This document shows, in pieces, positions 30,976 to 63,065 of a DNA stretch of 64,000 nucleotides. Positions within the stretch are counted from its first letter, which is position 1; each line of letters begins with the position of its first letter. A model generated the notes under the pieces. The model saw only the letters and a list, made by a program, of their open reading frames with translations, searched no databases and was not told the origin of the DNA. This stretch comes from Chlorobium sp. (GTDB lineage Bacteria > Bacteroidota > Chlorobiia > Chlorobiales > Chlorobiaceae): assembly GCA_005862225.1 (NCBI GenBank), contig SZXV01000006.1, forward strand, positions 18,367 through 82,366, read 5' to 3'. A program made the position numbers and the translations under genes.

Positions 30976-32295
30976 ATGAACAAAACAGCATCGATCCACT
31001 CCCTTGGGCCGATTACTCTCGCTCCTTCTGTGCTCCCCCGTCATGGCATTGCCTATCTTTATTCTGCTTTTTTTTCTATCGGACTGATAACGTTTGTCTC
31101 AATAGGGCAGGCATACATTCTCAATGAGCACCTGAAGATTCCGACATCACAGCAAGGCGCTATCAGTGGCGATCTTGTCTTTTGGACAGAGGTTATCACC
31201 CTGATGTTTTTTATACCCGCCGGGGTTCTGATGGATCGGGTCGGACGAAAACCGATATACTCTGCCGGTTTTATTCTTCTTGCGCTGGCTTATGCACTGT
31301 ATCCTTTCTCCCGTTCTCTCTCAGATTTAACACTCTGCCGGATAATCTATGCGTTTGGAATTGTTGCTGTCACCGGCGCACTCTCAACCGTCATGATTGA
31401 CTATCCTGCCGAACGATCACGAGGCAAACTTATTGCCATAACAGGGTTTCTCAATGGTCTTGGCATTGTAGTGCTGAACAGCTTTTTTGGAGGATTGCCA
31501 CAAAAGCTTGTCGCAAAAGGGTTCAGTGGCAATGATGCCGGAATTTACACCCACCTTGGCATTGCCGGAGTCGCACTTGTTTCCGCAATTGTGGTTGGCT
31601 TAGGGCTTAAGGGCGGCACTCCCGTCAGCAAGAAAGAGCGGCCTCCGCTTCGGGCACTCTTCACCAGTGGAATCAGTTGCGCGAAGAATCCAAGAATTCT
31701 GCTCTCTTACGCAGCAGCATTTGTGGCACGGGGAGATCAATCCATTATCGGCACCTTTCTTCCTCTTTGGGGAACAACCTCGGGTATTGCCATGGGGATG
31801 GCACCTGCTGAAGCTGTCAAAAAAGGCATGATGATTTTTATCATTTCACAAGCAGCAGCATTACTCTGGGCTCCGGTTATCGGGCCACTGATTGACCGCT
31901 GGAACCGGGTCACCGCACTTGCTCTCTGCATGTCTCTGGCCAGTATCGGGTATCTTTCGCTTGGCTTCATCGGCAATCCCCATGAACCGACTTCAATCAT
32001 CTTTTTTGTGCTGCTCGGCATTGGCCAGATAAGCTCGTTTCTTGGTGCTCAGTCACTGATAGGTCAAGAGGCGCCAAAGGCTGAACGGGGATCCGTCATC
32101 GGTATGTTCAACATCAGTGGCGCCATAGGAATTCTGGTTATCACAACCATTGGAGGAAGATTGTTTGATTCCATCAGTCCAAAAGCGCCCTTCATTGTCG
32201 TTGGCACCATCAATGCACTCGTCATGCTGGCAGGTATCATGGTACGTCTCAAGGCCCCAGGAAAAAGCTTTCAGACTGAGCATGAACACGCCTGA
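30976..32295 (+). CDS. MFS transporter
   Basis: GVLMDRVGRK and GPLIDRWNR motif A copies; about 12 TM segments. Confidence 0.88.
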   Translation: MNKTASIHSLGPITLAPSVLPRHGIAYLYSAFFSIGLITFVSIGQAYILNEHLKIPTSQQGAISGDLVFWTEVITLMFFIPAGVLMDRVGRKPIYSAGFILLALAYALYPFSRSLSDLTLCRIIYAFGIVAVTGALSTVMIDYPAERSRGKLIAITGFLNGLGIVVLNSFFGGLPQKLVAKGFSGNDAGIYTHLGIAGVALVSAIVVGLGLKGGTPVSKKERPPLRALFTSGISCAKNPRILLSYAAAFVARGDQSIIGTFLPLWGTTSGIAMGMAPAEAVKKGMMIFIISQAAALLWAPVIGPLIDRWNRVTALALCMSLASIGYLSLGFIGNPHEPTSIIFFVLLGIGQISSFLGAQSLIGQEAPKAERGSVIGMFNISGAIGILVITTIGGRLFDSISPKAPFIVVGTINALVMLAGIMVRLKAPGKSFQTEHEHA

Positions 32296-32328
32296 CTCTC
32301 AAGAGTTACCATAAAGCGAATCTCACTC

Positions 32329-33573
32329 ATGCAAAAAACGATTACAAAAGCATTTTCTTTCAAAACACTGCTCAGCTTTCTCGGCCCCGGGTTTCTTGTT
32401 ACCGTAGGTTTTGTCGATCCGGGCAACTGGGCCACCAATATTGAGGGAGGAGCAAAATTCGGCTACGAATTACTCTGGGTTGTTACTCTCGGCACCATCA
32501 TGCTGATCATTATTCAGCATATTGCAGCCAAACTTGGCATAGCCACCGGAAAATCACTGGCCGTCAACATCCGCGACTCTTTTCCGAAACCGGTGACCGC
32601 ATTTCTTGGTTTTACTGTCGTTCTGGCCTGTATTGCAACTGATGTTGCTGAGCTTCTTGGTGGAGGCATCGGGTTCAGTCTTCTGTTTGGCATACCCCTC
32701 TGGGCGGGATCACTGATAACCCTTCTTCTCAAGATTTTTCTGGTTATAAGTCAACGGTATCACCGAATTGAAACAATTATTGTCAGTTTTCTTGGCATAA
32801 TCACCTTATGTTATCTGGCCGAGCTTTGGATGGTAAAACCGGACTGGACAGCAACAGCGACAGCACTCGTTGTACCAAAAGTGCGCAGCGAAAGTATTTA
32901 TATAGCGCTCGCCATTCTTGGCGCACTGGTCATGCCTCACAACATATTTCTTCACTCCAACGTCATTCACAGCAGGAAATGGGGCATTTCTGAAGAAGAG
33001 AAGATGGATTTACTCCGATACGAAAAAATGGACACTCTTCTTGCCATGACTCTGGGCTGGATTGTCAACTCTTCAATGATCATCGTTGCTGCGGCAATCT
33101 TCTTTAAAAATAAGATCCCGGTCAACACTCTCGAACAAGCTTCGGCAACATTGATACCAATTGTGGGTCACTATGCCAGCCTGTTATTTGCCATAGCGCT
33201 TATTTTTTCAGGCGTTGGCTCATCGATGACATCTTCTATGGCTGAAGCCGATGTCATCACAGGATTTCTGGGCAAGCCAGAAGATCCCCAAACGCCATTA
33301 TATCGGCTCTCCGTTTTTGTGACGGCTATTCCGGCATTCATGATTATTTTATTCAGCATCGAGAGCTATAAGATCCTGATTTTCAGTCAGGTCATTTTAA
33401 GTATCCAGCTCCCTTTTACCCTGCTGCCTCTTCTCATTCTCAGCCGAAATCAAAAACTTATGGGCAGCTTTCGAAGCCATAATGTCGAGTTTGCAGCAGC
33501 ATTACTCATATCCGTGACAGTTATTGCCCTCAATATCTATTTTTTGTATACGACCGTAACCCAGGGAAACTGA
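32329..33573 (+). CDS. Nramp/MntH divalent metal transporter
   Basis: GFVDPGNW and ALVMPHNIFLHS metal-binding motifs. Confidence 0.9.
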   Translation: MQKTITKAFSFKTLLSFLGPGFLVTVGFVDPGNWATNIEGGAKFGYELLWVVTLGTIMLIIIQHIAAKLGIATGKSLAVNIRDSFPKPVTAFLGFTVVLACIATDVAELLGGGIGFSLLFGIPLWAGSLITLLLKIFLVISQRYHRIETIIVSFLGIITLCYLAELWMVKPDWTATATALVVPKVRSESIYIALAILGALVMPHNIFLHSNVIHSRKWGISEEEKMDLLRYEKMDTLLAMTLGWIVNSSMIIVAAAIFFKNKIPVNTLEQASATLIPIVGHYASLLFAIALIFSGVGSSMTSSMAEADVITGFLGKPEDPQTPLYRLSVFVTAIPAFMIILFSIESYKILIFSQVILSIQLPFTLLPLLILSRNQKLMGSFRSHNVEFAAALLISVTVIALNIYFLYTTVTQGN

Positions 33574-34631: not shown

Positions 34632-36834
34632 GTTTCAATCCACGCGCCCGAAGGGGGCGCGACTAATGATGAAAATCTACCTTCTGACAAATCTTTGTTT
34701 CAATCCACGCGCCCGCAGAGGGCGCGACCAGATTTAACGCTTTTGTTGACGGAGATGATTGAGTTTCAATCCACGCGCCCGCAGGGGGCGCGACTCAGCC
34801 GGGGCTATCACCCCTGAAGAGGTGCGTGTTTCAATCCACGCGCCCGCAGGGGGCGCGACTATCCAGCCTTGATAATTTTTTCGTAGCATGCAAGTTTCAA
34901 TCCACGCGCCCGCATGGGGCGCGACTTGCTCTCTTTCTCCTGATTCTCCACCTTTTATTGTTTCAATCCACGCGCCCGCATGGGGCGCGACCCGGCAAAG
35001 TCAGTGATCGAGTTGTGGTAGGCTTGTTTCAATCCACGCGCCCGCATGGGGCGCGACTTTGTTCCGATCCACGGCAAGGCGTCACCACCGGTTTCAATCC
35101 ACGCGCCCGCATGGGGCGCGACCGAAAATGTTGACCGCTTTCCGCTCTTTTTTGCCGTTTCAATCCACGCGCCCGCATGGGGCGCGACTTTTTGTAGCTT
35201 GCTTCATGCTGGACTACTATGTTTCAATCCACGCGCCCGCATGGGGCGCGACTCACCGGGATTGATTTGCTCACCCATAAATTTCTGGTTTCAATCCACG
35301 CGCCCGCATGGGGCGCGACGGCCTCAGGTAAGCGTCCGTTATCATTTAATGCAAAGTTTCAATCCACGCGCCCGCATGGGGCGCGACCGTTCACTTTTTC
35401 TTTCTAAACTTCAAAAATTTGTTTCAATCCACGCGCCCGCATGGGGCGCGACTTAGTCTGGTTGAACTGGCGCGCTTTTCAAGGCGTTTCAATCCACGCG
35501 CCCGCATGGGGCGCGACATTTGTAGATTGATTTCGTGCACCGAGGGCAGAGTTTCAATCCACGCGCCCGCATGGGGCGCGACTTAAGAGTATCGCCAGGC
35601 AAGACCTCATCGACAGTTTCAATCCACGCGCCCGCATGGGGCGCGACTTCGAGAGTGCCGCCTATGTTGCTAGGTACATCATGTTTCAATCCACGCGCCC
35701 GCATGGGGCGCGACCATGGTCATGGATTCCATTCCCACTCTTTTTCTGTTTCAATCCACGCGCCCGCATGGGGCGCGACTGCTATGCAGACCTCGCAGAT
35801 CTCCCAGCAGCTTAAGTTTCAATCCACGCGCCCGCATGGGGCGCGACCTGTCATTGCTCGACGACCCTACTCGCCGGAGCGTTTCAATCCACGCGCCCGC
35901 ATGGGGCGCGACCAACAACACGAGCAACAGGTGTATTGCTCTCGATGTTTCAATCCACGCGCCCGCATGGGGCGCGACCAGAATTAAAGACGGCTTGTTC
36001 GCCAAGTGCCTGTTTCAATCCACGCGCCCGCATGGGGCGCGACTTATCTCTCCTCGACGATCCGTCTAGACGGAGCGTTTCAATCCACGCGCCCGCATGG
36101 GGCGCGACAATAGATTGCATAGCAATCTGGAAATCAGATACAGTTTCAATCCACGCGCCCGCATGGGGCGCGACTCAGGCCTCCCCAGCGGAGCCCCGGG
36201 GCTCCGCAGTTTCAATCCACGCGCCCGCATGGGGCGCGACAGGAGCGCTGAATATCAGCACTCGGGGTTATACCGTTTCAATCCACGCGCCCGCATGGGG
36301 CGCGACGAATAGCCTCACCGCGAGAAGTGGCAGTCCAAGGTTTCAATCCACGCGCCCGCATGGGGCGCGACCTCGACAAAAGACTTGTGGAATCCATGCC
36401 CATGTTTCAATCCACGCGCCCGCATGGGGCGCGACTTTGCAACTCACCAGCGTCCCTTAAAGTAATAGTTGTTTCAATCCACGCGCCCGCATGGGGCGCG
36501 ACTTGGGTATCAGGAGCGGTATGCCGAGTATCGGTACGTTTCAATCCACGCGCCCGCATGGGGCGCGACGCGGGCATCCCTCTCGTATAAACGTTGGATC
36601 TGGTTTCAATCCACGCGCCCGCATGGGGCGCGACTTACCACCAATAAGACCCATAACACCGGTAGCAACAGTTTCAATCCACGCGCCCGCATGGGGCGCG
36701 ACCTCACGCTGATGACTTGTGCTGGACATGCGCTCCTGGTTTCAATCCACGCGCCCGCATGGGGCGCGACTTAACACCAGTACGCTTGCGCAGACGTTTG
36801 AGGTTTCAATCCACGCGCCCGCATGGGGCGCGAC
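34632..36834 (-). CRISPR. Type I-C CRISPR array: 34 repeats (32 bp), 33 spacers (32-36 bp)
   Basis: Repeat on + is GTTTCAATCCACGCGCCCGCATGGGGCGCGAC (crRNA sense ends ATTGAAAC). Variant repeats lie at the 34.6-kb trailer end and cas2 is adjacent at the other end. Confidence 0.98.
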
Positions 36835-37010
36835 TGTCTAACTGTAATATCAGGCATTTCGTGGTTTTAACGTGGCCTTAACGCGAACCACTTCGTATGC
36901 CAAAAAACATTTTACGAAATCCTGATAATAAAAACTATAACCACAAAAATATTAAGCGAATAGGGATATCGCGAACATACCGGGAAAAGAGGTACAGCTT
37001 GACGTTCGCG
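36835..37010 (-). promoter_or_regulatory. CRISPR leader
   Basis: AT-rich non-coding stretch between cas2 and the first canonical repeat, with GCGAAC/GTTCGC motifs. Confidence 0.8.
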
Positions 37011-37301
37011 CTACACAATCAATATGCCTTCAAGATCCCGGGGCTCTTTGGCACCTTCGTGCTCAATACGATTTTCCCAGTTTGATCCGAGAAAATAAAA
37101 ACGCAAACTGTCATGTTTGTGATCCATCTCATGAACAAGCTTACCTCGTAATTTTACCCATTGCGCAGGATCGACATTGCACTCAAACACAGAAAACTGA
37201 ACACGCTGCCCATAATTCTGACAAGTCTTGGCAATACGGCGCAACCTCCTTTTTCCTGCGGGAGTTTCGGTATTAACATCATAAGTGACCAGAACCAACA
37301 T
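37011..37301 (-). CDS. cas2: Cas2
   Basis: MLVLVTYDV...RVQFSVFEC...DSLRFY. Confidence 0.96.
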   Translation of the reverse strand: MLVLVTYDVNTETPAGKRRLRRIAKTCQNYGQRVQFSVFECNVDPAQWVKLRGKLVHEMDHKHDSLRFYFLGSNWENRIEHEGAKEPRDLEGILIV

Positions 37302-37304
37302 GGT

Positions 37305-38336
37305 TTATCTCCAGACAAATGGCGGATAGGTATCAATATCGCCCCGGATATGACGAGCAAGCAGCATTGCCTGCATATGCCAGAGTAAACCGATGGCCAT
37401 TTTCTCTTTGACAAACGGGTGCTCAATCTCCTCCTGCTTCCGATTTTGATAAGCGGTTAAAAGCGTTTTACGGGCATCGTCTTTCAAAAGCACTGCTCCT
37501 GTTTCAGAGACAGTAAAATCATTGGACTGAATCTGGCCCCGATTGATCAACGACAGAGCCAACCGATCAGCAATGTAGGAACGGAACTCTTCAATCATGT
37601 CAAGCGCAAGGCTTGGCCGCCCCGGCCTGTCTTTATGAAGAAATCCTGCAGCGGGATCAAGCCCACACGACTCAAGCGCAGAACGAATATCGTGAGTAAG
37701 CAGCGTATAGAGAAAAGAGAGCAGGCAATTTATTCGATCAAGCGGCGGGCGACGGTTACGTCCGGTAAAACGGAATAATGGGTCAGAAGAGGTAATACAC
37801 TCATCGAAAACATCAAAATAAACTTTGGCAGCCTCCCCTTCAATCCCCCTGATACGCTCTTGATTGGTTTCATCCCGCAAGCGCTTCACGCAACCAGCAA
37901 GGACATGCTGAGCATTTTTCAACCTGACTGCGTTCACTTTTTCTGGATGATCTCTTACCGTCCTTGCAAGAGTTATCCGGGCATTACCAATTTTTCCAAT
38001 AACAAATGAGCGTGCAAGACAGGCTGTCTGCAAGTCATTATCAGCCATCCGATACTGTGCTCTCCGCAACAAAATATTACCCCGTGTAGCTCCCTGAACC
38101 TGACAAAGATATTTTCCGTATTGACTTAAAAAAGTTACTGTTACACCGGTTTCAGCACAATGACCAAGCAGAAACGGACTGCACGTCACCGCTCCAAAAC
38201 AGACAATTACATCAAGCATGTGAAGAGGAATACGCGTTTTAACCTCTTTTTCTATTTTGATAACAGCACACTCCCCCTCTTTTGAAAGATAAGCTCCCTG
38301 CGTGGTGACAAAAAGGGTATTGAGATATTTTTTCAC
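37305..38336 (-). CDS. cas1: Cas1 (type I-C)
   Basis: GTG start at 38336 ([13 protein letters not shown]) with GGAGGAG upstream; RGIEGEAA, LDMIEEFR, YPPFVWR. Confidence 0.96.
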   Translation of the reverse strand: MKKYLNTLFVTTQGAYLSKEGECAVIKIEKEVKTRIPLHMLDVIVCFGAVTCSPFLLGHCAETGVTVTFLSQYGKYLCQVQGATRGNILLRRAQYRMADNDLQTACLARSFVIGKIGNARITLARTVRDHPEKVNAVRLKNAQHVLAGCVKRLRDETNQERIRGIEGEAAKVYFDVFDECITSSDPLFRFTGRNRRPPLDRINCLLSFLYTLLTHDIRSALESCGLDPAAGFLHKDRPGRPSLALDMIEEFRSYIADRLALSLINRGQIQSNDFTVSETGAVLLKDDARKTLLTAYQNRKQEEIEHPFVKEKMAIGLLWHMQAMLLARHIRGDIDTYPPFVWR

Positions 38337-39004
38337 ATCTCCTCCTCCGAGAGTGTTTGAAGCAATTTTTGAAGGTACACTTTCGCCGATTTTCCCTGGG
38401 CAATCACCTCCGGCAGACACTCCTCTTTCAGGGAGCAGAGTTTGCATTTTGGCCCTGGGTCAGGTGGCGGCGTTACTCCATTCCGAAAAAGATCATGCAC
38501 TCCTTTGGCGGCAAGGCTTGTGCTTTCACGCAAAGCGTCATCGAAATCAACATCAAACCGATGTTTTGTCTGACCATAAAAAAGGGCACCTGCCGGAATC
38601 TGAATGTCGAGCATCTCCTCAAGGCAGATTGCCTGGGCACAAAGCTGGATTTTATCGGCATCATGTTTTTTCGGCTTGCCCCGCTTGTATTCAACCGGAA
38701 ACGGCTCTTCATGATTCTCCAGTTTATGCCATTCCACAACATCAGCCACACCGGAAACCCCAAGCAGAACGCTTCGCAATGCCGCACTCCTTGTTACCCG
38801 AACACCACTGCGATACGATGTTTTGCCATCATCAACCCGCTCATGCATCTCCCGGCCCTCAGCAGTATAACTATTCTCGCTCCATATCTGTTCGAGATGG
38901 ATCAAGGCGCACTGCCGGGGACAATAGACAAAATGCTGCAGTGCAGAGAGGGCGATGAAATCGGATTCGGGGTACATGGCATCTGTGTTATCTTTGTTAG
39001 CCAA
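38333..39004 (-). CDS. cas4: Cas4
   Basis: [25 protein letters not shown]-terminal CxxCSLxxxC. Confidence 0.95.
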
Positions 39005-39896
39005 GTTTTCTAATCAAATTGACCTCACCAAGATCATTGTCATTCACAGTTACGGCATAGTCCTCAAATGAACGAGCGGGGCCAGAAAGAGCGTTCTTCC
39101 GTTCTATTGTAATCCGGTCAAACAGGGCATAAGCCGGTGCATTGCCAAGTGCTGTGCTGTGCTCAAAGACATACAACCCCCTTGTTGCCATCATTCCCCT
39201 TGCTGCCGAACGGTCATGCTCGAACATGTTCAGCAATGAGTCCCAGAACAGGTTGAGATCCTCTTCGGAAAAACCAGTCTGATTTGCGAGATGAGCTGAA
39301 ACAAAACCGGATGCCCGATAAAGGCCATAAGGCACCGTATATTTGCGACCCATTGTCCGATTATCTCCGCTTTGTTTTTCAGCTTCAGCTTCTGTAGCAA
39401 CTGCCATTCTGGTAATACTGTGCTCCAGTGCCACAATCGGTTCAATAGAACGAGCAAAAGTTAACTGGACAGGCCCGCGAACCTGACCTGCATTTGCACC
39501 AGTTGACATAACAGCACCAAATGTCCGAATATCATAATACTGCTTACACATTTGCGCACGGCCTTTCTCGACCTCGCCACCTTGCGCCGTACCATCCTTA
39601 TTTCTCTTCTTCCCATCTTTTTGATCTGACGGCTCTTTAGTCAAATCAATTTTTAGATCTTCATACGCTTTATCGATCAAAAGATTGAGAACACCTTTTT
39701 CTTTGATGAAAATGTTTTGCCCAGAAAGCTGGACATAGTTCCGTACCTTTCGTTTCAGACAAACATCAGTCACCAGCCCCATTCCCGTCTCAGCATCTAT
39801 GCGGGGAAGATTGCCAGCATCAGGATCACCATTAGGATTGCCATCTTTCACATCAAACAACAGGACGAAATCATACCGTTTTTCGAGATTACTCAT
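38997..39896 (-). CDS. cas7: Cas7c (Csd2)
   Basis: [41 protein letters not shown]. Confidence 0.96.
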
Positions 39897-39901
39897 TGTG
39901 T

Positions 39902-41635
39902 TCACCCCTCATTTTTGTTTTCATTGTTTGAAGAACTTGTAAATAATGCCTGCCTCTGGTGGTAATATCCAATGGCAAAACGGGACTGATCTTCCATAGC
40001 CAGATGAGATGGCATTTCCGAGCCAATACCGTCAAAAATTTCAGTCAACATTCGCTCAAAGTTGATCTTTCTACCAACATTTTCAAGCTTGGCAAGATGA
40101 TGGTTTTTAAGCTTCAACAACTGCGGAAAAACTGTTACCGGTGACGATGACGCTGCACCATAGAACCTGTCACGAATTGTTGCATTCAAACCGGGATTTG
40201 CCTCTTCCTGGATTTTTTCAAGTACAGCAAAAAGACGCCCGAGACGATAACCCGGATTATTATTGGCAGTATCAAGAGCCACAGTGATCTCCTTTTCTTT
40301 GGTTGAGTGAATTCTGTAATATCGATTGAGATAAGCCTTCAGGATACCTGCCTGCATTCTGGTAACATCCCTCGTAGCCCGGATTCGACGAATGGTTTGC
40401 TGAAGCATTGTTGCCGGATAGAGCGAACCTGTCAGTACAGCCTGAACAATTTGGCCAGAAAGATTTGGCGGAACATTATCAACCTTGTTTTCCAAAGCCA
40501 TAGCAGAAAGAATCCAGAACAAAGCATAACGCCCCGTATCCTTTGGAGAACGAACAATTTTAAGGTCATCAAAATGCTGCCTGATTTTTTTGGCAAAGTC
40601 TTGAACTACTCCCTCATGCCAGAATCTTACTGAAAGACGTGCTGCATTAGGAGCAAGCCCAAGAACATAAAATCTCGTTTGAGAATCGCCGCCAGTATAA
40701 CCAGTAAAGACCCCTTCGTAAAGAGCGTTGACTGCGCGAACGTCAGCATCAGGATCATCTTTTGGGGGAAGAGCAAAAAAGGATGGGAAAAAATCTTCAA
40801 ACGCTGTAGGCTTTTGTGCCCAAAAGATGGTCGTGGCATCGCCAGCTTGAACTTTATTTTTAGAATCCTTACCAAGCAGCATATTCAGCACAGTGGTGTA
40901 AGCAAAAGCTGCAGATTCACCAATCGGCGCATTGTAATTCTGAGTTTTACCATAAGATTCAAAAGCTTTCAAATTAAACGATACCAAAGCAGCGCCTGAT
41001 GATTGAGCACCACGAACTCCCTTTATGGATGCATTAAGCCTGGCAATTGGTTCTTGAGCACCTGATACAAGGCAAATTCCAGTGCCTTCAACTTCTTGAT
41101 GCTTCAGGATATAGGGTTTCATCGTATCGCACAGGCTTGCGCTCTTTGATCCCAAAACCCTGAAGATCACATTAGCATTATTTTCATGTGCTTCTTTCCA
41201 GAGCTTATTTTCTGACTCTTGGGAGGTAATCTGTGCAATGGGATTGTGCTGAAGAAACTCAACCAATGGTGCTACAAGTGACGTTGATGTCTCTTCTGGG
41301 AATGTTTCTTGTAATCGGTTAAGAAATGCATTCTTCCGAGCATCAATGTCATTACGATCACGGGGATTTGCTCCCAGTGCATATTCAACATTGTCCCACA
41401 GCAAGTTTGCTTTAACTCCGACTGTTTTTTTCTCAGCAGCAGGCACTAAAAATACTTTTGCCCGTTTCTTTTTCCCATCCCCTTCACGAGTATCTTCAAG
41501 CGCCACAAAATTACCATCGTTATCAATAACAATCACAAAGGGGATTTCCTTCCACTCAAATCCTTCTGGCGCAATGCCACTATCAGAATCAGCCGCCTTG
41601 CGCTGATAATAGTCGTAGAGTGCCTGTAAAATCAT
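39902..41635 (-). CDS. cas8c: Cas8c (Csd1)
   Basis: [15 protein letters not shown]...[36 protein letters not shown]. Confidence 0.96.
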
Positions 41636-42345
41636 TTTTTCACCTCCTCACTTTCCCAAGCTGGAATTTCAATGACCCCATTTTTTAACTGGGCTCTAAA
41701 AAAAGCTGGGGCTGGACTATCTGGTTTTATTACAAAGTCGAGATCGTACAACATGAAACCGAGATCGCGAGTCTCATCAATGGCTTTTTGCTCTTGAGCT
41801 ATATCATCAATCAGCCGAAAATCACAACTGAATTCGCGACAACCGAGATAGGGTTGGTTGAAACATTGCCCTTTGCTGGCCCGTCGCTCAAACATAGCGT
41901 TGTATTTACCTGGATTCTCATCTTTTTGCCACTCATCCTTTTCGCTGTTCTCAAGCAAAGCCTCCATTACCGGACGAATAACTTTTGGTCTTGCCGGAGG
42001 AGGAATAAACTCCAGCTCAGCATGGAGTCGATAGGCCACATCTTGCAAAAAAAGTCCCGCTCGTTGTTGACGGTTATCTTCTATAAAAATACTGCGGCTT
42101 CGTTCACTGGCCGTAGTCCCGACCTCATTGCGCCGTACCGAAACCCATTTGATTGGTTTTAAAATCTCAATTTTTAGGATATGCCATTTGATGGCCGGTT
42201 TCCAGAAAATGGCCTCAAAAATCCCTCGTGCGGCTGACGGAGTAATCACGTCGTAGCTGACACGCTCAACTTTCATCTCCGGTCTTGTGAAACAGGCATA
42301 ATCTCCCTTGACTTCGAGACAGAATATTTTGTTGCAGTATTCCAT
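41632..42345 (-). CDS. cas5: Cas5c (Cas5d)
   Basis: GDYACFTRPEMKVERVSYDVITPSAARGIFEAI; PYLGCREF. Confidence 0.96.
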   Translation of the reverse strand: MEYCNKIFCLEVKGDYACFTRPEMKVERVSYDVITPSAARGIFEAIFWKPAIKWHILKIEILKPIKWVSVRRNEVGTTASERSRSIFIEDNRQQRAGLFLQDVAYRLHAELEFIPPPARPKVIRPVMEALLENSEKDEWQKDENPGKYNAMFERRASKGQCFNQPYLGCREFSCDFRLIDDIAQEQKAIDETRDLGFMLYDLDFVIKPDSPAPAFFRAQLKNGVIEIPAWESEEVKK

Positions 42346-42368
42346 AGCACGCTGCTTTTTTTGTTCAG

Positions 42369-44607
42369 TTACCAGTACAAATTTGGGGTTGCTTTGACAT
42401 CAAGACCGAATACCGGGTCATACAAATTTTTGTCAGTCTGTACCCAGATACCATTAACCTCTTCAATCATTCCGTTTTTATGCATTTCCTGCAGATCACG
42501 ATCGTAAACGTTGACTGAAAAGCGTTGCAATTTCCTCATCAAATTTCTGCTTGGGCCGATAAAACGCAATTGATTTATCAATTTTTCATTATCAGTCGTC
42601 TCCGATTGATACCGGACAATCAAGCCGTGCTGCTGTGCGTCATCAATAAGCTTGAACCGAAGCGCTGCCGTACGGAACTGAATCTTGAACTGCCGTGCAT
42701 CAGGCCCGGCAAGGAGATCCATGATCTGCTTTTTATCAAAATCATTCAGTCGGTTGAAATACAAGTAGAAGTATTGTCTGAAAGCTTCCGGCATCAGTGA
42801 TGCAGCAAGTTCAGGATAAACGCGAAACATCTCCTGCCCTGCCTGCTCTGCTTTCAGCATCACTCCTGCGGGTGGAGGCTTTGGTGGATTAAAAACAAAA
42901 ACTTCCCCCTTTTCCAATTTCCCTTCACGATTGCAGCGACCGGCGGCCTGCGCAATACTGTCAAGTCCGGTAAATGCCCTGAAAACAACAGAAAAATCAA
43001 TATCGACACCCGCTTCAAGCAGTTGTGTGCTGATCACTCGCACAACAATATTTTCTTTCAGCATTGATTTAATTCCAGTAATAACCTCACTGCGGTGTTC
43101 GGGGCACATCAGGGCTGAAAGGTGAACAGTCCCTTCGGGCATAATACCATGCAGGTCCCGACAATCGTTTCGAGTATTAACGATACACAACACTTGTTGA
43201 TATTTACGGAGCTGTTCAGCAACAGCTTGCCACTCCTGACGTTCATCTGAAGCGCCAAACATCTGAATATTCACACGCTGAAAAATCCTGAACAGATTTT
43301 CAGGGTCGGACATCAATTCCCGAACACTACCTTCGCTGAATCCTTTCAGAACATTCTGCCCTGAACCAATTCTGCCTGACAATACCGGCTGTGTTGCCGT
43401 ACAAAGCACAACAGAGGTTTTAAAATATTCTGCCAACACGTTTATAACCGAAACGATCGGTTGCAGATATTCAGTAGGCAGCATTTGCGCTTCATCAAGC
43501 ACAATCACTGAGTTGACGATGTTGTGCAGTTTTCTGCAAGCCGAGCTTTTAGAAGCAAAAAGCGACTCGAACAACTGGACATTCGTTGTGACAATAATCG
43601 GTGCATCCCAGTTTTCCGTTGCAAGTCGTGATTTTGAATCTTCTTTTTCCGAATCGAAATTACTGTGATGTTCAAGCACGGCATCATTGCCAAACACTTT
43701 TCGATAAACATCTGCCGTCTGCTCAATAATGCTGGTATAAGGAATGGCAATGATAATCCTCTTTTTGCCATGTCTGATGGCATGATTAAGGGCAAAAGCC
43801 ATTGATGAGAGGGTTTTTCCTCCACCGGTCGGCACGGTCAGCGAAAATAACCCGGATGCCAGCCCGGCGTTGTTTCTGCAATCATCCAGAATGGTTTTTC
43901 TTGCTTCATTAACCGGACTCTTTCGAGCCTCATCCTGTTTTTTATCCATGAACGAATCAAAAACAACCTTCAATTCCGCAAGGTTACATACACTTGTGCG
44001 AAGGTCAGCCTTTTCCGGACTCATAAACGACTCCGTATCAAGAAAATCGGCATCAACCAGACAGGAATAGAGCATTCTCACCCAGATATGCACGGCATCA
44101 TTATCCTTGAAAACCATTTTGCAGGGCGGTGTAGAAGGCAACGAAACATCCAGAATATCCTGTGGAGGATTACCTGACAAAGCTTTCTGTAAATTTTCAG
44201 CAACCATTAACCGACCAGAAAGAGCCCCTCCAACACCCTGCTCATGTTCCCAATCAGGTAATCCTGCATGATGCCCAGCGATGAGGTAGGCAAGTATTCG
44301 ACCAATGCTTTCATTTTTGTGAACCGCGTAAAGCGCACCAGCAGAAGAATGATCAATCTTGCCCATTATCCTCCTCGGAATAATCACCGTTGCTTCTGCG
44401 GATATATTCCTGCCACTGAGGATTGTATTTTCCAAGATCGTGTAACACACCGGCAGCTTTCGCCCAGTCTCCATTACCAAATTCATCGGCAAACAGGGCT
44501 GCTTTTTCAGCAACATGGATAAGATGATCTTTCAGGTCATGGACTTCCCATAAGCCATCAGAATTTTCCCGAAGATGGGCGACTGGTTGTATAGATTGTG
44601 CTGCCAT
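42369..44607 (-). pseudogene. cas3: Cas3 (HD nuclease-helicase) split by a frameshift inside the HD domain
   Basis: The 5' ORF has HL...LHDLGK and stops at 44353. The 3' ORF has DHS, AGHHAGL, LVDAD, PTGGGKT, DEAQ, QAAGRCNR. The span is 3n+1, and removing one G at 44362-44364 fuses them. Confidence 0.88.
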
Positions 44608-51854: not shown

Positions 51855-53105
51855 TTAATCCAGCCGGGGCTTGACGCCCTTGATATCATGAAAAGAGACC
51901 ACACCTAGCAGATAATCACTTTCATCAGTAATAGGAATCGCCCTGAAAGAGTAACGGAAAAACATGTCAACAGCATCATGCAGCGTATCATCCGGGTTCA
52001 GGGTAATAAGACTGTCCGTCATGATGTCCCCAAGCGTCTGCTCAGGCTCAGCCGCAATCAACTCCCGGATATCAACCACTCCCTGCAAGATGTTTTCTGC
52101 ACTCACAACATAGACATACATAATGACGTCCATATCACCGGCTACTTCCCGAAAATTATCGATCACCTCTTTAACCATCGTATCAACAGGGCGTTTGATC
52201 ACCTGCTGCGTCGAATAGAGCATGATATTTTCATCATTCTGATCAATGATCTGCTGCACTCTCTGCTTGTTTTCACTATCGACAAACTCGATAATCTCAT
52301 CGGCTTCAGAGGCCGGCAACACTGAAAGAATTCCGGCCACCTGTGCAGGACTCATCTCATTGATCAAGCCGGCAGCCTTCTCTTTTTCCATGGATCTGAT
52401 CAGTTCCCTCTGTACCCTTGGCTCAACCTCTTCGAGTGTATCAGAAGCCAGTTCAGGTTCAAGCTCGTTGAAAACCGCTATGCGCTGATTGCCTTCAAGC
52501 TCTTCGAGAATATCGGCAAGATCAACCGGATGAATGTCGTTAATATTTTCCTTGAGGACATTAAGCTTGACATTGCCTTCAAAACTTCCAATAGTGTCCG
52601 GCAAAGGCTGAACGTAAAGCCATGAGATACTGGAGTCTTCTTTGTGCCGCGCAAGATAGTTTGCAAGCTTTTTAAAGCCCATCCGACGAAGGATTCGAAA
52701 GCGATTGAAATCAACCTCGGTGACAAAAAGTTTTTCGTTCTGGAATAACAACTTGACATCATAGACCACCTCAACCTCATGACCATCCATATCAAGAATC
52801 TTCTTGTCAAGGATATAGTCTTTGAGAAAGATGTGGTTGTCAATCGGATTCAGTTCATACCCTTCTGTGGCAGTGATTTCTGAAACAATCTCGGTATTTG
52901 AAATCAGGGTAATTTTATCCCAGGGAATCAACAGACGAGGATCACCATAAGGGCGATGAACAAGAATATGAGTCACTTCCGGAATTTTACCCGCATTTTC
53001 CTGAATGACAAGATCCTTCAGTTTGCCAATTGAGTTCGATTTCAGATAGATTCGTCGTCCAACAATTTCACTCAGATAAAATTCACGATCAAGTACGGTA
53101 ACCAT
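51855..53105 (-). CDS. MgtE intracellular-domain/CBS protein with PRC-like N-terminus and no TM domain
   Basis: HPVDLADILEEL (MgtE_N), tandem CBS motifs, no hydrophobic C-terminal domain. Confidence 0.82.
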   Translation of the reverse strand: MVTVLDREFYLSEIVGRRIYLKSNSIGKLKDLVIQENAGKIPEVTHILVHRPYGDPRLLIPWDKITLISNTEIVSEITATEGYELNPIDNHIFLKDYILDKKILDMDGHEVEVVYDVKLLFQNEKLFVTEVDFNRFRILRRMGFKKLANYLARHKEDSSISWLYVQPLPDTIGSFEGNVKLNVLKENINDIHPVDLADILEELEGNQRIAVFNELEPELASDTLEEVEPRVQRELIRSMEKEKAAGLINEMSPAQVAGILSVLPASEADEIIEFVDSENKQRVQQIIDQNDENIMLYSTQQVIKRPVDTMVKEVIDNFREVAGDMDVIMYVYVVSAENILQGVVDIRELIAAEPEQTLGDIMTDSLITLNPDDTLHDAVDMFFRYSFRAIPITDESDYLLGVVSFHDIKGVKPRLD

Positions 53106-53120
53106 TTTTGATTTTAGGTT

Positions 53121-53297
53121 TTATACAACTTTTAATACCGTGATGAATTTGTAAACCATCAGTACAACAAGCAGAAAGAGATAAACCCGAAGTAACGCCA
53201 GTGAAAATTTCACACCTCGGGACATTTCGACCGTTGGTTTGGCATAGCGCTGGTTGATCTCGCGGATCTTGCTGAAAAATTGATTGATTGTCCTCAT
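53121..53297 (-). CDS. 58-aa single-TM protein missed by the ORF track
   Basis: Manual translation MRTINQFFSKIREINQRYAKPTVEMSRGVKFSLALLRVYLFLLVVLMVYKFITVLKVV*; fills the gap between two co-oriented genes. Confidence 0.75.
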   Translation of the reverse strand: MRTINQFFSKIREINQRYAKPTVEMSRGVKFSLALLRVYLFLLVVLMVYKFITVLKVV

Positions 53298-53313
53298 TAT
53301 CTGATACCCTCAA

Positions 53314-54582
53314 TTATTGGAAAATATTGGGAAAGAGTGCACTGACGCCATACATGGTGGAGAGAATGATGATCGATCCAACAATAACGCTGCTGATAAT
53401 ATTCTGTAATCGTGTATTGGCATACTCCCCCATAGTTTTTTTATCGTTGAGCAGCAGAATGAGAAAAACAAGCGCCGCAGGAAGAAGTGTTACCGCTACA
53501 ACCTGGACAAAAAGTGTGATGAGTACAAGCGGCGCGCCCGGAATCAAGGGAACAACTCCGGCCGTTATCAGGGTAAAGAGAAAAGAGATATAAAACCAGG
53601 GGGCTTCTTTTACCTTGGTGTTGAGTGAGTGCGCCCATCCAAAGATCTCTCCGAATGCCCATGAGCTTGCGAGAGAAATACAGATCGCCCCGAGCAAACC
53701 GGCATCAAACAAACCAATCGCCATGAACGCTCCGACATAATGATTTGTTTTCATCAACAATTTTGCTGCGGTAGCTGCATCATCAATTGGCGCACCATTC
53801 AGAAGCGTGCCGGTTACAATGACAATGAAAATCGCAATGGCAACAGTGATAATCGCGCCGATAAAGGTATCGATTTTGCCCATTTTGATATCTTTTTCCT
53901 GCAAGCCTTTGTCAACCACCGAGCTTTGCTGAAAAAAAAGCATCCAGGGAGCGATTGTCGTACCGATATTGGCCATCAGCAGAAAAAAGAGCTCATTGGT
54001 AAGACCTCCCGGAAGATTTGGAATCAATCCATGACTTGCAATATCGGCAATTGACGGGTTAACCATAAATGCCGCTGGAATATAAATCAGGTTCAAAAGA
54101 CAAAACCCAAGGGCGATTTTTTCCCAGGTCCAGTACCGGCCATTCAGCACGATAATGCTCATGAGCAGGACCACAAGAATGACGGTCAACCATGCCGGAA
54201 CACCAAAAATGCTTAACGCTGCTGTCATGCCGACAAATTCAGTCACGAGTGTCAACCAGTCCACAATCATGAGATCAAGCAGCGAAAACCACCCCCAGAA
54301 AGCACCAAAACTTTCAAAAATAGCTTCGGCATGTCCACGTTTGGTCACTGCCCCCAACCTCACGGTCATCTCCTGTACATAATAGGCCACCGGGATAAGA
54401 AGAAGCAAAAACCATATAAGGTGATAACCATATTTGGCGCCGGTAGCGGCATAAGTAGTAATGCCCCCGGCGTCATTATCAGCAATCATCACAACAAGAC
54501 CCGGACCTGCAATGACAAGGTAGAGGCGAACAGCTTTCCAGACTTTTTTAAACCGGTAGTAGAGAAGAGAAAAAAAATCCAT
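53314..54582 (-). CDS. Nramp-related transporter (NRMT-like, probably Mg2+)
   Basis: IADNDAGGITTY replaces DPGN; GTTIAPW replaces MPH; next to an MgtE_N/CBS gene. Confidence 0.82.
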   Translation of the reverse strand: MDFFSLLYYRFKKVWKAVRLYLVIAGPGLVVMIADNDAGGITTYAATGAKYGYHLIWFLLLLIPVAYYVQEMTVRLGAVTKRGHAEAIFESFGAFWGWFSLLDLMIVDWLTLVTEFVGMTAALSIFGVPAWLTVILVVLLMSIIVLNGRYWTWEKIALGFCLLNLIYIPAAFMVNPSIADIASHGLIPNLPGGLTNELFFLLMANIGTTIAPWMLFFQQSSVVDKGLQEKDIKMGKIDTFIGAIITVAIAIFIVIVTGTLLNGAPIDDAATAAKLLMKTNHYVGAFMAIGLFDAGLLGAICISLASSWAFGEIFGWAHSLNTKVKEAPWFYISFLFTLITAGVVPLIPGAPLVLITLFVQVVAVTLLPAALVFLILLLNDKKTMGEYANTRLQNIISSVIVGSIIILSTMYGVSALFPNIFQ

Positions 54583-54914
54583 ATCCGTCGAATTGGACGT
54601 TGACGAGACCCGGCATTGTGATTGAAAGAGAGAGGAGAAGCATTTCACTCAGAGAGAGTCGTTCAGACTTACCTGTCAATCAGGCGCAAATTTACAATTC
54701 TTTGGTAACTTTACAAAGCAGGATATCTTATATAAAGCCCGCTATTTGCGCATTAACAATAGAGAAATGGGAGTTATACTTTTGAGGCAATCATTCATCT
54801 ATTTGTTTTCGCGAGTAAATACACAAAATCACCAACGTCCCTTTAACCAGGGGATGATTTTTTCTATTATATTGATGCTCAAATTATCTATATGTTTACT
54901 TGCAGAATTTCTTT

Positions 54915-59990: not shown

Positions 59991-62900
59991 ATGTTGAAAA
60001 TTTTTGAAAAGATCTTTGGCTCAAAACACGAAAAGGATATTAAAAAAATCCAGCCCATTATCCAGCGTATCAATGAGTTGCAGGCAGCCCTCTCATCGGT
60101 CAGTGATGACCAGTTGAGACAAAAGGGAGATGAGCTGAAACAAAAGGTCCGCAATACCCTGAAACCGTTTGAGGAAGAGAAAAAAAATCTTTCTCTGAAA
60201 CTTGATAAGCCGGATATCAATCTTGAAGAGGCCGAAACCATAAACACTCGCCTTGATGCCCTGGCGGAAGAGTATGATAAGGTAACCGCCGACATTCTGG
60301 AAGAACTACTTCCTGAGGCGTTTGCTCTTGTCAAAGAGACCTGCGTACGTCTTAAGGGACATACCTATCTGGTGATGGGAAGAGAGATGGTATGGAATAT
60401 GGTGCCCTATAATGTTCAGCTTATCGGTGGTATTGTGCTTCATTCAGGTAAAATATCTGAAATGGCCACTGGTGAAGGAAAAACCCTTGTCTCAACTCTT
60501 CCCGTTTTTCTCAATGCCTTGACTGGAAGAGGTGTACATGTTGTAACGGTTAATGACTACCTGGCCCAGAGAGACAAAGAGTGGATGAATCCCGTCTTTG
60601 CTTTTCACAACTTTTCGGTTGGTGTCATTCTCAACACCATGAGGCCTGAGGAACGCAGAGAACAATATTTGTGCGACATTACCTATGGCACCAATAATGA
60701 ACTTGGCTTTGACTATCTGCGAGACAATATGGCCGGAACGCCGGAAGAGATGGTACAACGTGAATTCTATTACGCCATCGTCGATGAGGTAGACAGCGTC
60801 CTGATTGATGAAGCCCGAACACCACTTATTATTTCAGGTCCGGTCCCCAACGCCGACAACAGCAAATTTCAGGAAATCAAACCATGGATTGAGCTGTTGG
60901 TTCGAGCCCAGCAGCAACTGGTGGCAACTTACCTTGGTGAGGCAGAAACAATCCTGAAAACCAAACCTAATGATGTTGATGCCGGTCTTGCATTGCTTCG
61001 AGTCAAACGCGGTCAGCCAAAAAACAGCCGCTATATAAAGATGCTGTCTCAGGTTGGTGTAGCCAAACTGGTTCAGGGAACTGAAAACGAGTATTTGAAA
61101 GACAACTCGAGCAGGATGCATGAAGTTGATGATGCTCTCTATTTTGCTGTAGACGAAAAAGGTGGCACTATCGATTTGACCGACAAGGGCAGAGAGTTTC
61201 TCAGCAAGCTCAGCCATCAGGACAGTGATATTTTTATGCTTCCTGATGTTGGTTCTGAGGTAGCGATTCTTGAAAGTGATACATCAATAGCTGTTGCTGA
61301 TAAAATTCAGAAAAAAGATCAGATTTACCGCCTTTTTGCTGATCGTTCGGAGCGTCTGCACAATATCAGTCAGTTACTGAAAGCTTACTCACTTTTCCAG
61401 CGTGATGATGAATATGTCGTTCAGAATGGACAGGTGATGATTGTTGATGAGTTTACCGGTCGCATTCTTGCGGGGCGGCGTTACAGCGACGGACTGCACC
61501 AGGCCATTGAAGCCAAGGAAAATGTCAAGATAGAGGGTGAGACGCAGACTATGGCCACCATCACTATCCAGAACTTTTTCCGTCTTTATAAAAAGCTTGC
61601 CGGCATGACCGGTACTGCAGAGACTGAAGCATCAGAATTTTATGAGATATACAAGCTTGATGTTGTCGTCATTCCCACCAATGCAAGCATTATCAGGGAA
61701 GACCGGGAAGATCAGGTGTATAAAACCCGACGCGAAAAGTACAACGCCATTATCCAGAAAATTGAGGAGCTGCAGAAAAAAGGACAACCAGTACTTGTTG
61801 GAACCACAAGTGTTGAAGTCTCGGAAACTCTTTCGAGAATGCTTCGTGGTAAAAAAATTATTCACAATGTATTGAACGCCAAGCAGAACGATCGTGAAGC
61901 GGACATTGTTGCTGAAGCAGGTCAGAGTGGCGCTGTAACCATTGCCACCAACATGGCTGGACGCGGAACAGATATCAAGCTTGGCCCTGGTGTCCGTGAA
62001 CTTGGAGGGCTTTTTATTCTTGGCTCCGAACGTCATGAATCCCGTCGAATAGATCGCCAGCTTCGCGGACGTGCCGGACGGCAGGGTGACCCCGGTGAAT
62101 CGGTCTTTTTTGTTTCGCTTGAAGATGAATTGATGCGCCTTTTTGGCTCTGATCGTGTTATTTCTGTGATGGATCGTCTTGGCCATGAAGAGGGAGACGT
62201 CATTGAACATTCGATGATCACCAAATCGATAGAACGTGCTCAGAAAAAAGTTGAGGAACAGAACTTTGCTATCCGTAAACGTCTGCTTGAATACGACGAT
62301 GTGCTGAACCAGCAGCGGGAGGTTATCTATTCACGCCGCAGAAACGGTCTCATCAAGGAACGTCTCACCAGTGATATTCTTGATCTCCTGAAAGATTACA
62401 GTGATACCATCATCAAGAAATATCACAAGGACTTTGATGTGGACGGTATTGAAGAGCAGTTGATGCGTGAACTCTCGATTGAGTTCAAACCTGACAGACA
62501 GACCTTTGAGCGCGAAGGAGTTGATGTCACGGCTGAAAAACTTTACGACACGGCACTTGCCTTTTATCGCAGAAAAGAGGATGCCGTTCCCGAAGAGATC
62601 ATGGGTCAGATCGAAAAATATGCGGTATTGAGCGTTATCGATCTTCGCTGGAGGGAGCATCTCCGTGAAATCGACTCACTTCGTGAAGGAATCAATCTTC
62701 GTGCCTATGGCCAGAAAGACCCGCTGCTTGAGTACAAGCAGGAGGCATTCCGTCTCTTTATTGAGCTGCTTCGCGATATAGAACTTGAGACGCTGTCGCT
62801 TGCTTTTAAACTTTTCCCGGTAGATCCTGAAGAGGCAAGGGAAATGGAGGAGCGTCAGAGAAAAGCTGCTGTCAAGCAGGAAAAGCTTGTGGCGCAGCAC

Positions 62901-63065
62901 TCCCCTGCAAACAGTGTTTACACCATTGTCGAAGAGAATGATGGGGATGACAATAAAGAAGTCCCGCAACAGCCGGTTATCGCTGATAAAAGACCAGGAC
63001 GTAATGATCTGTGCCCCTGCGGAAGTGGAAAAAAATATAAAAATTGTCACGGCCAACAGCCCTGA
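59991..63065 (+). CDS. secA: Preprotein translocase SecA
   Basis: [38 protein letters not shown]-terminal [17 protein letters not shown]. Confidence 0.98.

Follow-up and report, generated by a model that had tools for sequence, protein, structure and literature searches.

A 64,000-nucleotide stretch of a Chlorobium sp. genome (contig SZXV01000006.1, positions 18,367 to 82,366; hereafter the window, within which all coordinates are given) carries a type I-C CRISPR array, two of whose spacers, S1 and S2, very probably sample one homologous coding site in two diverged relatives. The course of events that we consider probable is one of two separate type I-C acquisitions from the same 33-bp site, anchored by the protospacer-adjacent motif (PAM), in two related, long-diverged viruses, with the gene for the internal scaffolding protein VP3 of gokushoviruses as the likeliest location of that site. 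The older spacer, S1, lies at 35848-35880, and the newer, S2, at 36044-36076, three units closer to the leader. The CRISPR RNA (crRNA) strand of both is the minus strand; the plus strand is the coding sense and reads LSLLDDPTRRS in S1 and LSLLDDPSRRS in S2. Each spacer is 33 nt long and is held between perfect 32-nt repeats, with two other spacers separating the pair. Aligned in the same orientation at offset 0, S1 and S2 have the same base at 23 of 33 positions, the best agreement among the 528 spacer pairs of the array; the runner-up pair shares 18 positions, and shuffled arrays, 200 in all, reached 21 at the most. An earlier reading of this DNA from its letters alone, the sequence-only reading, had reported the coordinates, lengths, common register and identity of the two spacers, along with their peptides and the restriction of their ten mismatches to codon positions 1 and 3, and our analysis reproduced each of these.

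The distribution of the mismatches (positions 1, 3, 6, 7, 9, 18, 21, 22, 25 and 27) leaves every second codon position untouched, an outcome with P = 0.0067 for ten positions drawn at random. Ten of the 11 residues are the same in the two peptides. The codons show six synonymous differences, three of them at two bases (CTG/TTA, TTG/CTC and CGC/AGA), and the sole residue change, ACT to TCT, is a conservative one of Thr to Ser. None of the other five frames is conserved between the spacers, and three of the five contain a stop in one or both. By the method of Nei and Gojobori (S = 9, N = 24), the proportion of synonymous differences is saturated (pS = 0.78) and that of nonsynonymous differences is low (pN = 0.125); the probability that ten random substitutions in S1 would alter no more than one residue is 3e-5. 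The signature of protein-level constraint that the sequence-only reading had seen is thus real, and the divergence between S1 and S2 arose in a translated gene ahead of both acquisitions.

The other spacers point to the kind of element that the array targets. When all spacers were compared to INPHARED by blastn, the matches were to Microviridae only, chiefly to gokushovirus major capsid genes, the best being 33/35 nt in VP1 of robinz microvirus RP_115. At 22 bits or more, 8 of the 33 spacers matched a gokushovirus panel and none of the 33 reversed controls did so; the 1700 spacers of other arrays with the same repeat gave 46 matches against 30 when reversed, a background level without gokushovirus enrichment. 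Exact 11-12-residue spacer peptides were found in VP1, VP2 and VP4 of IMG/VR contigs. Judged from their sequences, at least ten spacers other than S1 and S2 are gokushovirus-derived (VP1, VP2, VP4), all of them in the newer two-thirds of the array. The peptide-level assignments to VP1 comprise the spacers that begin at 35253, 35453, 35583, 35913, 35979, 36372, 36503 and 36570; the spacer at 35648 (FESAAYVARYI) is assigned to the VP4 Rep and that at 36703 (QERMSSTSHQRE) to VP2. Both spacers between S1 and S2 (35913-35946 and 35979-36011) are assigned to VP1, with IESNTPVARVV and ALGEQAVFNS on the minus strand, and their mean best scores over 98 gokushovirus genomes were 28.8 and 31.7, respectively, compared to a null of 19.8 +/- 1.3 (maximum 27.2). 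An older gokushovirus stretch (35253-35747, minus strand) holds the spacers at 35253, 35453, 35583, 35648 and 35715, interleaved with the unassigned 35320, 35388 and 35518. A newer one (36372-36738, minus strand) holds 36372 (GHGFHKSFVE), 36503 (GYQERYAEYRY), 36570 (QIQRLYERDAR) and 36703, interleaved with the unassigned 36436 and 36635. The spacer at 35715 (HGHGFHSHSFS) is probably also from VP1. It lies in the plus orientation at 35715-35747, and both it and the minus-oriented spacer at 36372-36403 fall in the 'GHGF.KSF.EHG' region of VP1; the two come from different viruses, a one-residue indel apart and in opposite orientations. The presence of this pair in the same array supports plain resampling of one site.

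Most of the mapped spacers, those at 35913 and 35979 included, are followed by GAA on the 3' side of the window's plus strand, for which one in 64 would be expected; these flanks were read at the homologous sites of related gokushoviruses, not at exact protospacers. A GAA flank is the TTC PAM of type I-C systems and confirms the polarity of the array. Some mapped spacers run with the viral coding strand and others against it, which fits acquisition from a double-stranded replicative form. Among 201 related genomes, a single Phage_F match was found, on a gokushovirus contig of about 4 kb binned with a congeneric host genome (L130; G021:C163), whose Rep contains FESAAYVARYI, the translation of the spacer at 35648, exactly. 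This contig is ruled out as the actual target, with about 70% nucleotide identity at conserved sites, and its 80 relatives matched the spacers no better than 28/33 to 29/35. The peptide of the spacer at 35913 had no match in IMG/VR; the VP2 peptide of that at 36703 occurs in 16 microvirus contigs, with a nucleotide match of at most 30/36, none being near-identical.

On balance, the peptides favor the C-terminal motif '[LIV]x[FL]LxDPxx[RK]xE' of gokushovirus VP3 as the source of S1 and S2. VP3 (Pfam PF09675, Chlamy_scaf) carries a C-terminal block of the form 'F.NDP..[FL] [LIV].[FL][LC].DP.N[RK].E ....GL', as exemplified by IDFCSDPANRSE, VEFCDDPSNRAE and LEFCGDPANRDE, by LNAVFDPARRSE of a dog-faeces microvirus, and by INFLDDPKNKDE, which stands at the S1/S2 site of L130. 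A GAA PAM directly after a 33-nt in-frame spacer makes the next codon Glu, so that the peptide would extend to LSLLDDP[T/S]RRS-E. The residue that follows the 11-mer in VP3 is Glu in 80 of 86 genes, encoded as GAA in 32 and GAG in 48. Against eight VP3 sites, which like the 98 gokushovirus genomes had been picked independently of S1 and S2, the mean BLOSUM62 score was 19.75 for S1 and 21.0 for S2, compared to -9.5 +/- 6.4 for shuffles; at this fixed site, 5e-5 of the shuffles reached S1 and the best frame of any other spacer scored 5.6. When the 11-mer of a real VP3 was replaced and the protein scored against PF09675, S1 gave 116.4 bits and S2 117.2, between the native 125.8 and the 104.4-112.4 of seven controls. 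In the 98 genomes, the VP3 motif, read in its sense frame, accounted for 10-11 of the top 12 six-frame matches, the one in L130 among them. The likeness to the scaffolding motif (L.FL.DP.NR.E) proposed in the sequence-only reading stands in this respect; its genome-wide support is only marginal, with an overall P of about 0.01-0.04. That figure comes from a top-5 statistic with the PAM-implied Glu (S1, P = 0.03; S2, P = 0.01-0.017), in which multiple testing over all six-frame positions of the 98 genomes is included. Where the VP3 sites of two real gokushoviruses encode peptides no more than one residue apart, up to 9 of the 33 bases differ, which places S1 and S2, with 10 of 33, at the edge of natural variation.

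Several results weigh against this assignment. An Arg is unusual at motif position 9, which in VP3 is mostly Asn, and no VP3 context with DP[ATS]RRSE was present in IMG/VR. With the mean or maximum score as the genome-wide statistic, S1 reached only P = 0.05-0.17 over the 98 genomes, with 0.05-0.09 for the mean, and the mean best score of the 11-mer alone was indistinguishable from the null. Patterns for exact or merged S1/S2 and the codon-degenerate LSLLDDP[TS]RRS found nothing in IMG/VR, JGI metagenomes or GTDB genomes, and blastn of S1 and S2 gave chance matches only against INPHARED, as did the search of PLSDB. A search of 5.8 billion proteins for the peptide set in X-masked VP3 flanks yielded 3150 candidates and none at E <= 10; a synthetic positive control showed that a true VP3 match would have scored E = 1e-4 in this word search, which is blind to the peptide in a protein other than VP3 (18 bits, below the reportable level). 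With consensus VP3 flanks, the sole match of the protein word search was a protein that resembled the flank. A relaxed VP3-context pattern retrieved seven genuine VP3 genes from JGI metagenomes, at 13-18 of 33 nt to S1 and S2, none of them close. Candidates that were examined and rejected include an INPHARED match in a PriA helicase gene, a chance match on a mislabelled bacterial contig, and four matches to LLDDPxRRxE....G[LF], none in a VP3 context; the one examined in detail (L213) lies on a fragment of a tailed phage, where it runs antisense to a gene. In the host genome, the S1 and S2 sequences occur solely as the spacers, and no S1- or S2-like spacer was present among the 1700 spacers of other arrays with the identical repeat. 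Both protospacers were thus sought in viromes and in other collections, and neither was found. This absence is one from the searched collections, not from nature. The double immunisation by diverged viruses that the sequence-only reading proposed is partly supported: the coding signature, the exclusion of duplication and the gokushovirus-rich array speak in favor, and the failure to locate the protospacers speaks against.

The source could instead be a conserved gene of another kind of mobile element, such as a tailed phage, a plasmid or an integrative element, which would leave the account of two relatives unchanged. We regard this as possible, and as the less likely origin. It is consistent with the lack of a VP3 with the S1/S2 motif in any searched collection, with the marginal similarity to gokushovirus proteomes, and with about 20 spacers of the array that have no assigned source. 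However, the best matches cluster on a single VP3 motif in the sense frame, with the predicted Glu next to it, the PF09675 replacement favors S1 and S2 over all controls, and the neighboring spacers are gokushoviral. The phage and plasmid collections gave no match better than chance, and the relaxed-motif matches outside VP3 appeared to be antisense chance matches.

For two acquisitions in VP3, the following sequence of steps is proposed. An in-frame Glu codon, GAA, after the 11 codons would serve as the type I-C PAM (5'-TTC on the crRNA-identical strand) at S1 and S2, and the conserved position of this codon beside a conserved codon block would keep the PAM across diverged viruses. As Cas4-Cas1-Cas2 is expected, from established knowledge of type I-C systems, to measure the spacer from the PAM, independent acquisitions would share the register; the same start base and the modal length of 33 in both spacers would then follow from the conserved Glu codon. 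S1 would have been taken up first and S2 later, from the second virus. The crRNA of S1 mismatches an S2-type target at positions 7, 9, 12, 13, 16, 25, 27, 28, 31 and 33 from the PAM, one of them in the seed. The usual criteria for targeting are at most five mismatches and an intact seed (positions 1-5, 7 and 8). With ten mismatches, one of them in the seed, S1 fails these criteria, so the second virus would have remained uncovered and a new spacer would have been selected. A gokushovirus genome of 4.5 kb holds about 186 GAA/TTC PAM sites, so that, where an array has 10-20 gokushovirus spacers, chance alone should give a same-site pair in 10-40% of cases. The repeat immunisation at one site described in the sequence-only reading is therefore borne out as to the pair itself and is, by this expectation for so small a genome, less remarkable than had been implied.

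Primed re-acquisition would be a sub-variant of this explanation in which the second acquisition follows a particular route: S1 would have bound imperfectly to the diverged site and thereby set off type I priming, with a burst of the spacers at 35913 and 35979 and of S2, the last as an update of the site of S1 itself. The four consecutive spacers S1, 35913, 35979 and S2 are all of the gokushovirus type and would fit such a burst. Type I-E priming is reportedly tolerant of many mismatches, a finding attributed to Fineran et al. in 2014. Experiments in Legionella pneumophila have demonstrated priming by a type I-C system with a GAA PAM (Rao et al. 2016; PMC5071653), where natural overlapping pairs, the older spacer mismatched and the newer perfect, were read as primed updating. 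Ten mismatches with one in the seed would nonetheless be extreme, and priming is unnecessary where chance alone yields a same-site pair at the frequency given above. We consider this route unlikely, and more doubtful still the specific proposition that S1 acted as a cross-lineage priming spacer, its crRNA with ten mismatches on a distant VP3 site still priming re-acquisition at the same site.

A further alternative confines the events to a single lineage, in which one virus evaded S1 by synonymous changes and was then sampled again. S2 is indeed the newer spacer, and escape with subsequent re-acquisition is a known dynamic (PMC5071653). Yet a single change in the PAM or the seed suffices for escape, whereas here the six PAM-proximal bases are unchanged and nine of the ten changes lie outside the seed. 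The saturation of pS, moreover, would imply that the divergence long predates the time for which three array positions are likely to last. Escape by synonymous change, raised in the sequence-only reading, is hence very unlikely, as the saturated synonymous sites point to long-separated lineages. That S2 is a drifted in-array duplicate of S1 (or the reverse), or that the likeness arose by chance, has nothing to recommend it beyond the likeness itself and hardly merits consideration: in-array mutation is blind to codons, so that both P values for the coding pattern given above count against it, the spacers are 30% apart, against 100% identity among the repeats that flank and separate them, and 23 of 33 exceeds every one of the 200 shuffled arrays. 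The codon pattern and the identical repeats together exclude both chance and duplication with drift, the duplicate being the alternative that the sequence-only reading had itself named.

The favored account, two acquisitions from separate viruses, draws on the polarity of a complete type I-C system whose array is transcribed from the minus strand. The array (34632-36834, minus strand) consists of 34 repeats of 32 nt, with the transcribed sequence GTCGCGCCCCATGCGGGCGCGTGGATTGAAAC, and 33 spacers of 32-36 nt, and no second array with this repeat is present elsewhere in the 2.5-Mb host genome. The four repeats at the 34632-34859 end have one or two changes each and the remaining 30 are identical; the degenerate repeats mark that end as the old one, and S2 is accordingly newer than S1. 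An A+T-rich leader of 176 nt (36835-37010, minus strand) separates the cas2 stop from the first repeat and is the entry point of spacers. The contiguous genes of the cas3-cas5c-cas8c-cas7c-cas4-cas1-cas2 operon (37011-44516, minus strand) adjoin the array. NCBIfam matches above cut-off were obtained for the Cas3 core, Cas5c, Cas8c/Csd1, Cas7/Csd2, Cas4, Cas1c and Cas2, with 601 bits for TIGR01863, 260 for TIGR01876, 421 for TIGR02589 and 523 for TIGR03640 (Cas1c). The assignment to type I-C is based on the presence of cas8c (csd1), cas5c, cas7c (csd2), cas3, cas4, cas1 and cas2, the absence of cas6, and the adjoining array of repeats of about 32 nt with its leader on the cas2 side. The canonical type I-C system (Dvulg) agrees with the present one in gene order (cas3-cas5c-cas8c-cas7-cas4-cas1-cas2), in a repeat of 32 nt that ends in ATTGAAAC, in spacers of 32-36 nt and in the TTC PAM, with no notable difference between the two.

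The exact 32-nt repeat (for example, window positions 34894-34925) recurs in arrays of 93 stretches of GTDB genomes (L011-L103), from phyla that include Acidobacteriota, Planctomycetota, Bacteroidota, Ignavibacteriota, Spirochaetota, Desulfobacterota, Negativicutes and Gammaproteobacteria; the cas genes beside these arrays have just 65-79% identity to those described here. Three contigs of a sister strain or species (L120-L122, from JGI metagenomes 3300077324, 3300077325 and 3300077326) have an identical Cas2 and 91-95% identity over the cas operon and leader, the leader being conserved with few single-nucleotide polymorphisms. Their repeat is a one-base variant, with C for A in the loop, and their leader-proximal spacers are wholly different. 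Within the present array, the G+C-rich spacer at 36175-36208 (TCAGGCCTCCCCAGCGGAGCCCCGGGGCTCCGCA) contains a perfect 16-nt palindrome (GGAGCCCCGGGGCTCC), which is unusual in a spacer; a hairpin or terminator in its target may be the source. Metal-transport genes flank the CRISPR locus (30976-33573 and 51855-54648) and encode a MamH-like protein of the major facilitator superfamily, two members of the NRAMP/MntH family and an MgtE-like protein; the SecA encoded at 59991-63065 is of the long PRK12901 type.

The closest counterparts are found in Legionella. The type I-C array of L. pneumophila contains spacer pairs on overlapping or identical protospacers, which have been read as repeated invasion, possibly with priming (PMC5071653). 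These pairs share with S1 and S2 the subtype, the GAA-written PAM, the two-time sampling of one site and an older spacer that is mismatched. Their target, LME-1, is known and one or few bases differ, whereas S1 and S2 are exactly in register, show a purely coding pattern of differences at 30% of their bases, and have targets that are unsampled. In addition, spacers of the I-C, I-F and II-B systems of L. pneumophila were found to have matches in gokushovirus VP1, VP2 and VP4 that are confined to conserved regions (Deecker et al. 2021; bioRxiv 10.1101/2021.03.08.434514). Those arrays have in common with ours adjacent microvirus spacers and true phages that are missing from databases. They differ as to the host, which here is Gram-negative, with a 2.5-Mb genome of about 45% G+C and the long PRK12901-type SecA, and no VP3-derived spacer was reported for them; S1 and S2 would be of this kind. 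There are thus already published cases of one site being sampled repeatedly, of I-C arrays directed at gokushoviruses and of primed updating. The present pair is set apart by its exact register, by synonymous divergence to saturation and, probably, by the VP3 origin.

No new mechanism is shown by these findings, and a same-site pair is unsurprising for a 4.5-kb target by simple counting. Their significance lies in that the comparison of spacers alone can expose the reading frame and the selective constraint of a target gene that has not been sequenced. The array records that one bacterium met two or more members of a single group of small phages, deeply diverged from each other, and it ties an unsampled gokushovirus lineage to a specific host, where most microviruses are without a known one. 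Were cross-lineage priming by S1 true, a spacer on a conserved codon block would provide a family-wide 'memory' against an unsampled gokushovirus clade, and the host of that clade would be identified here.

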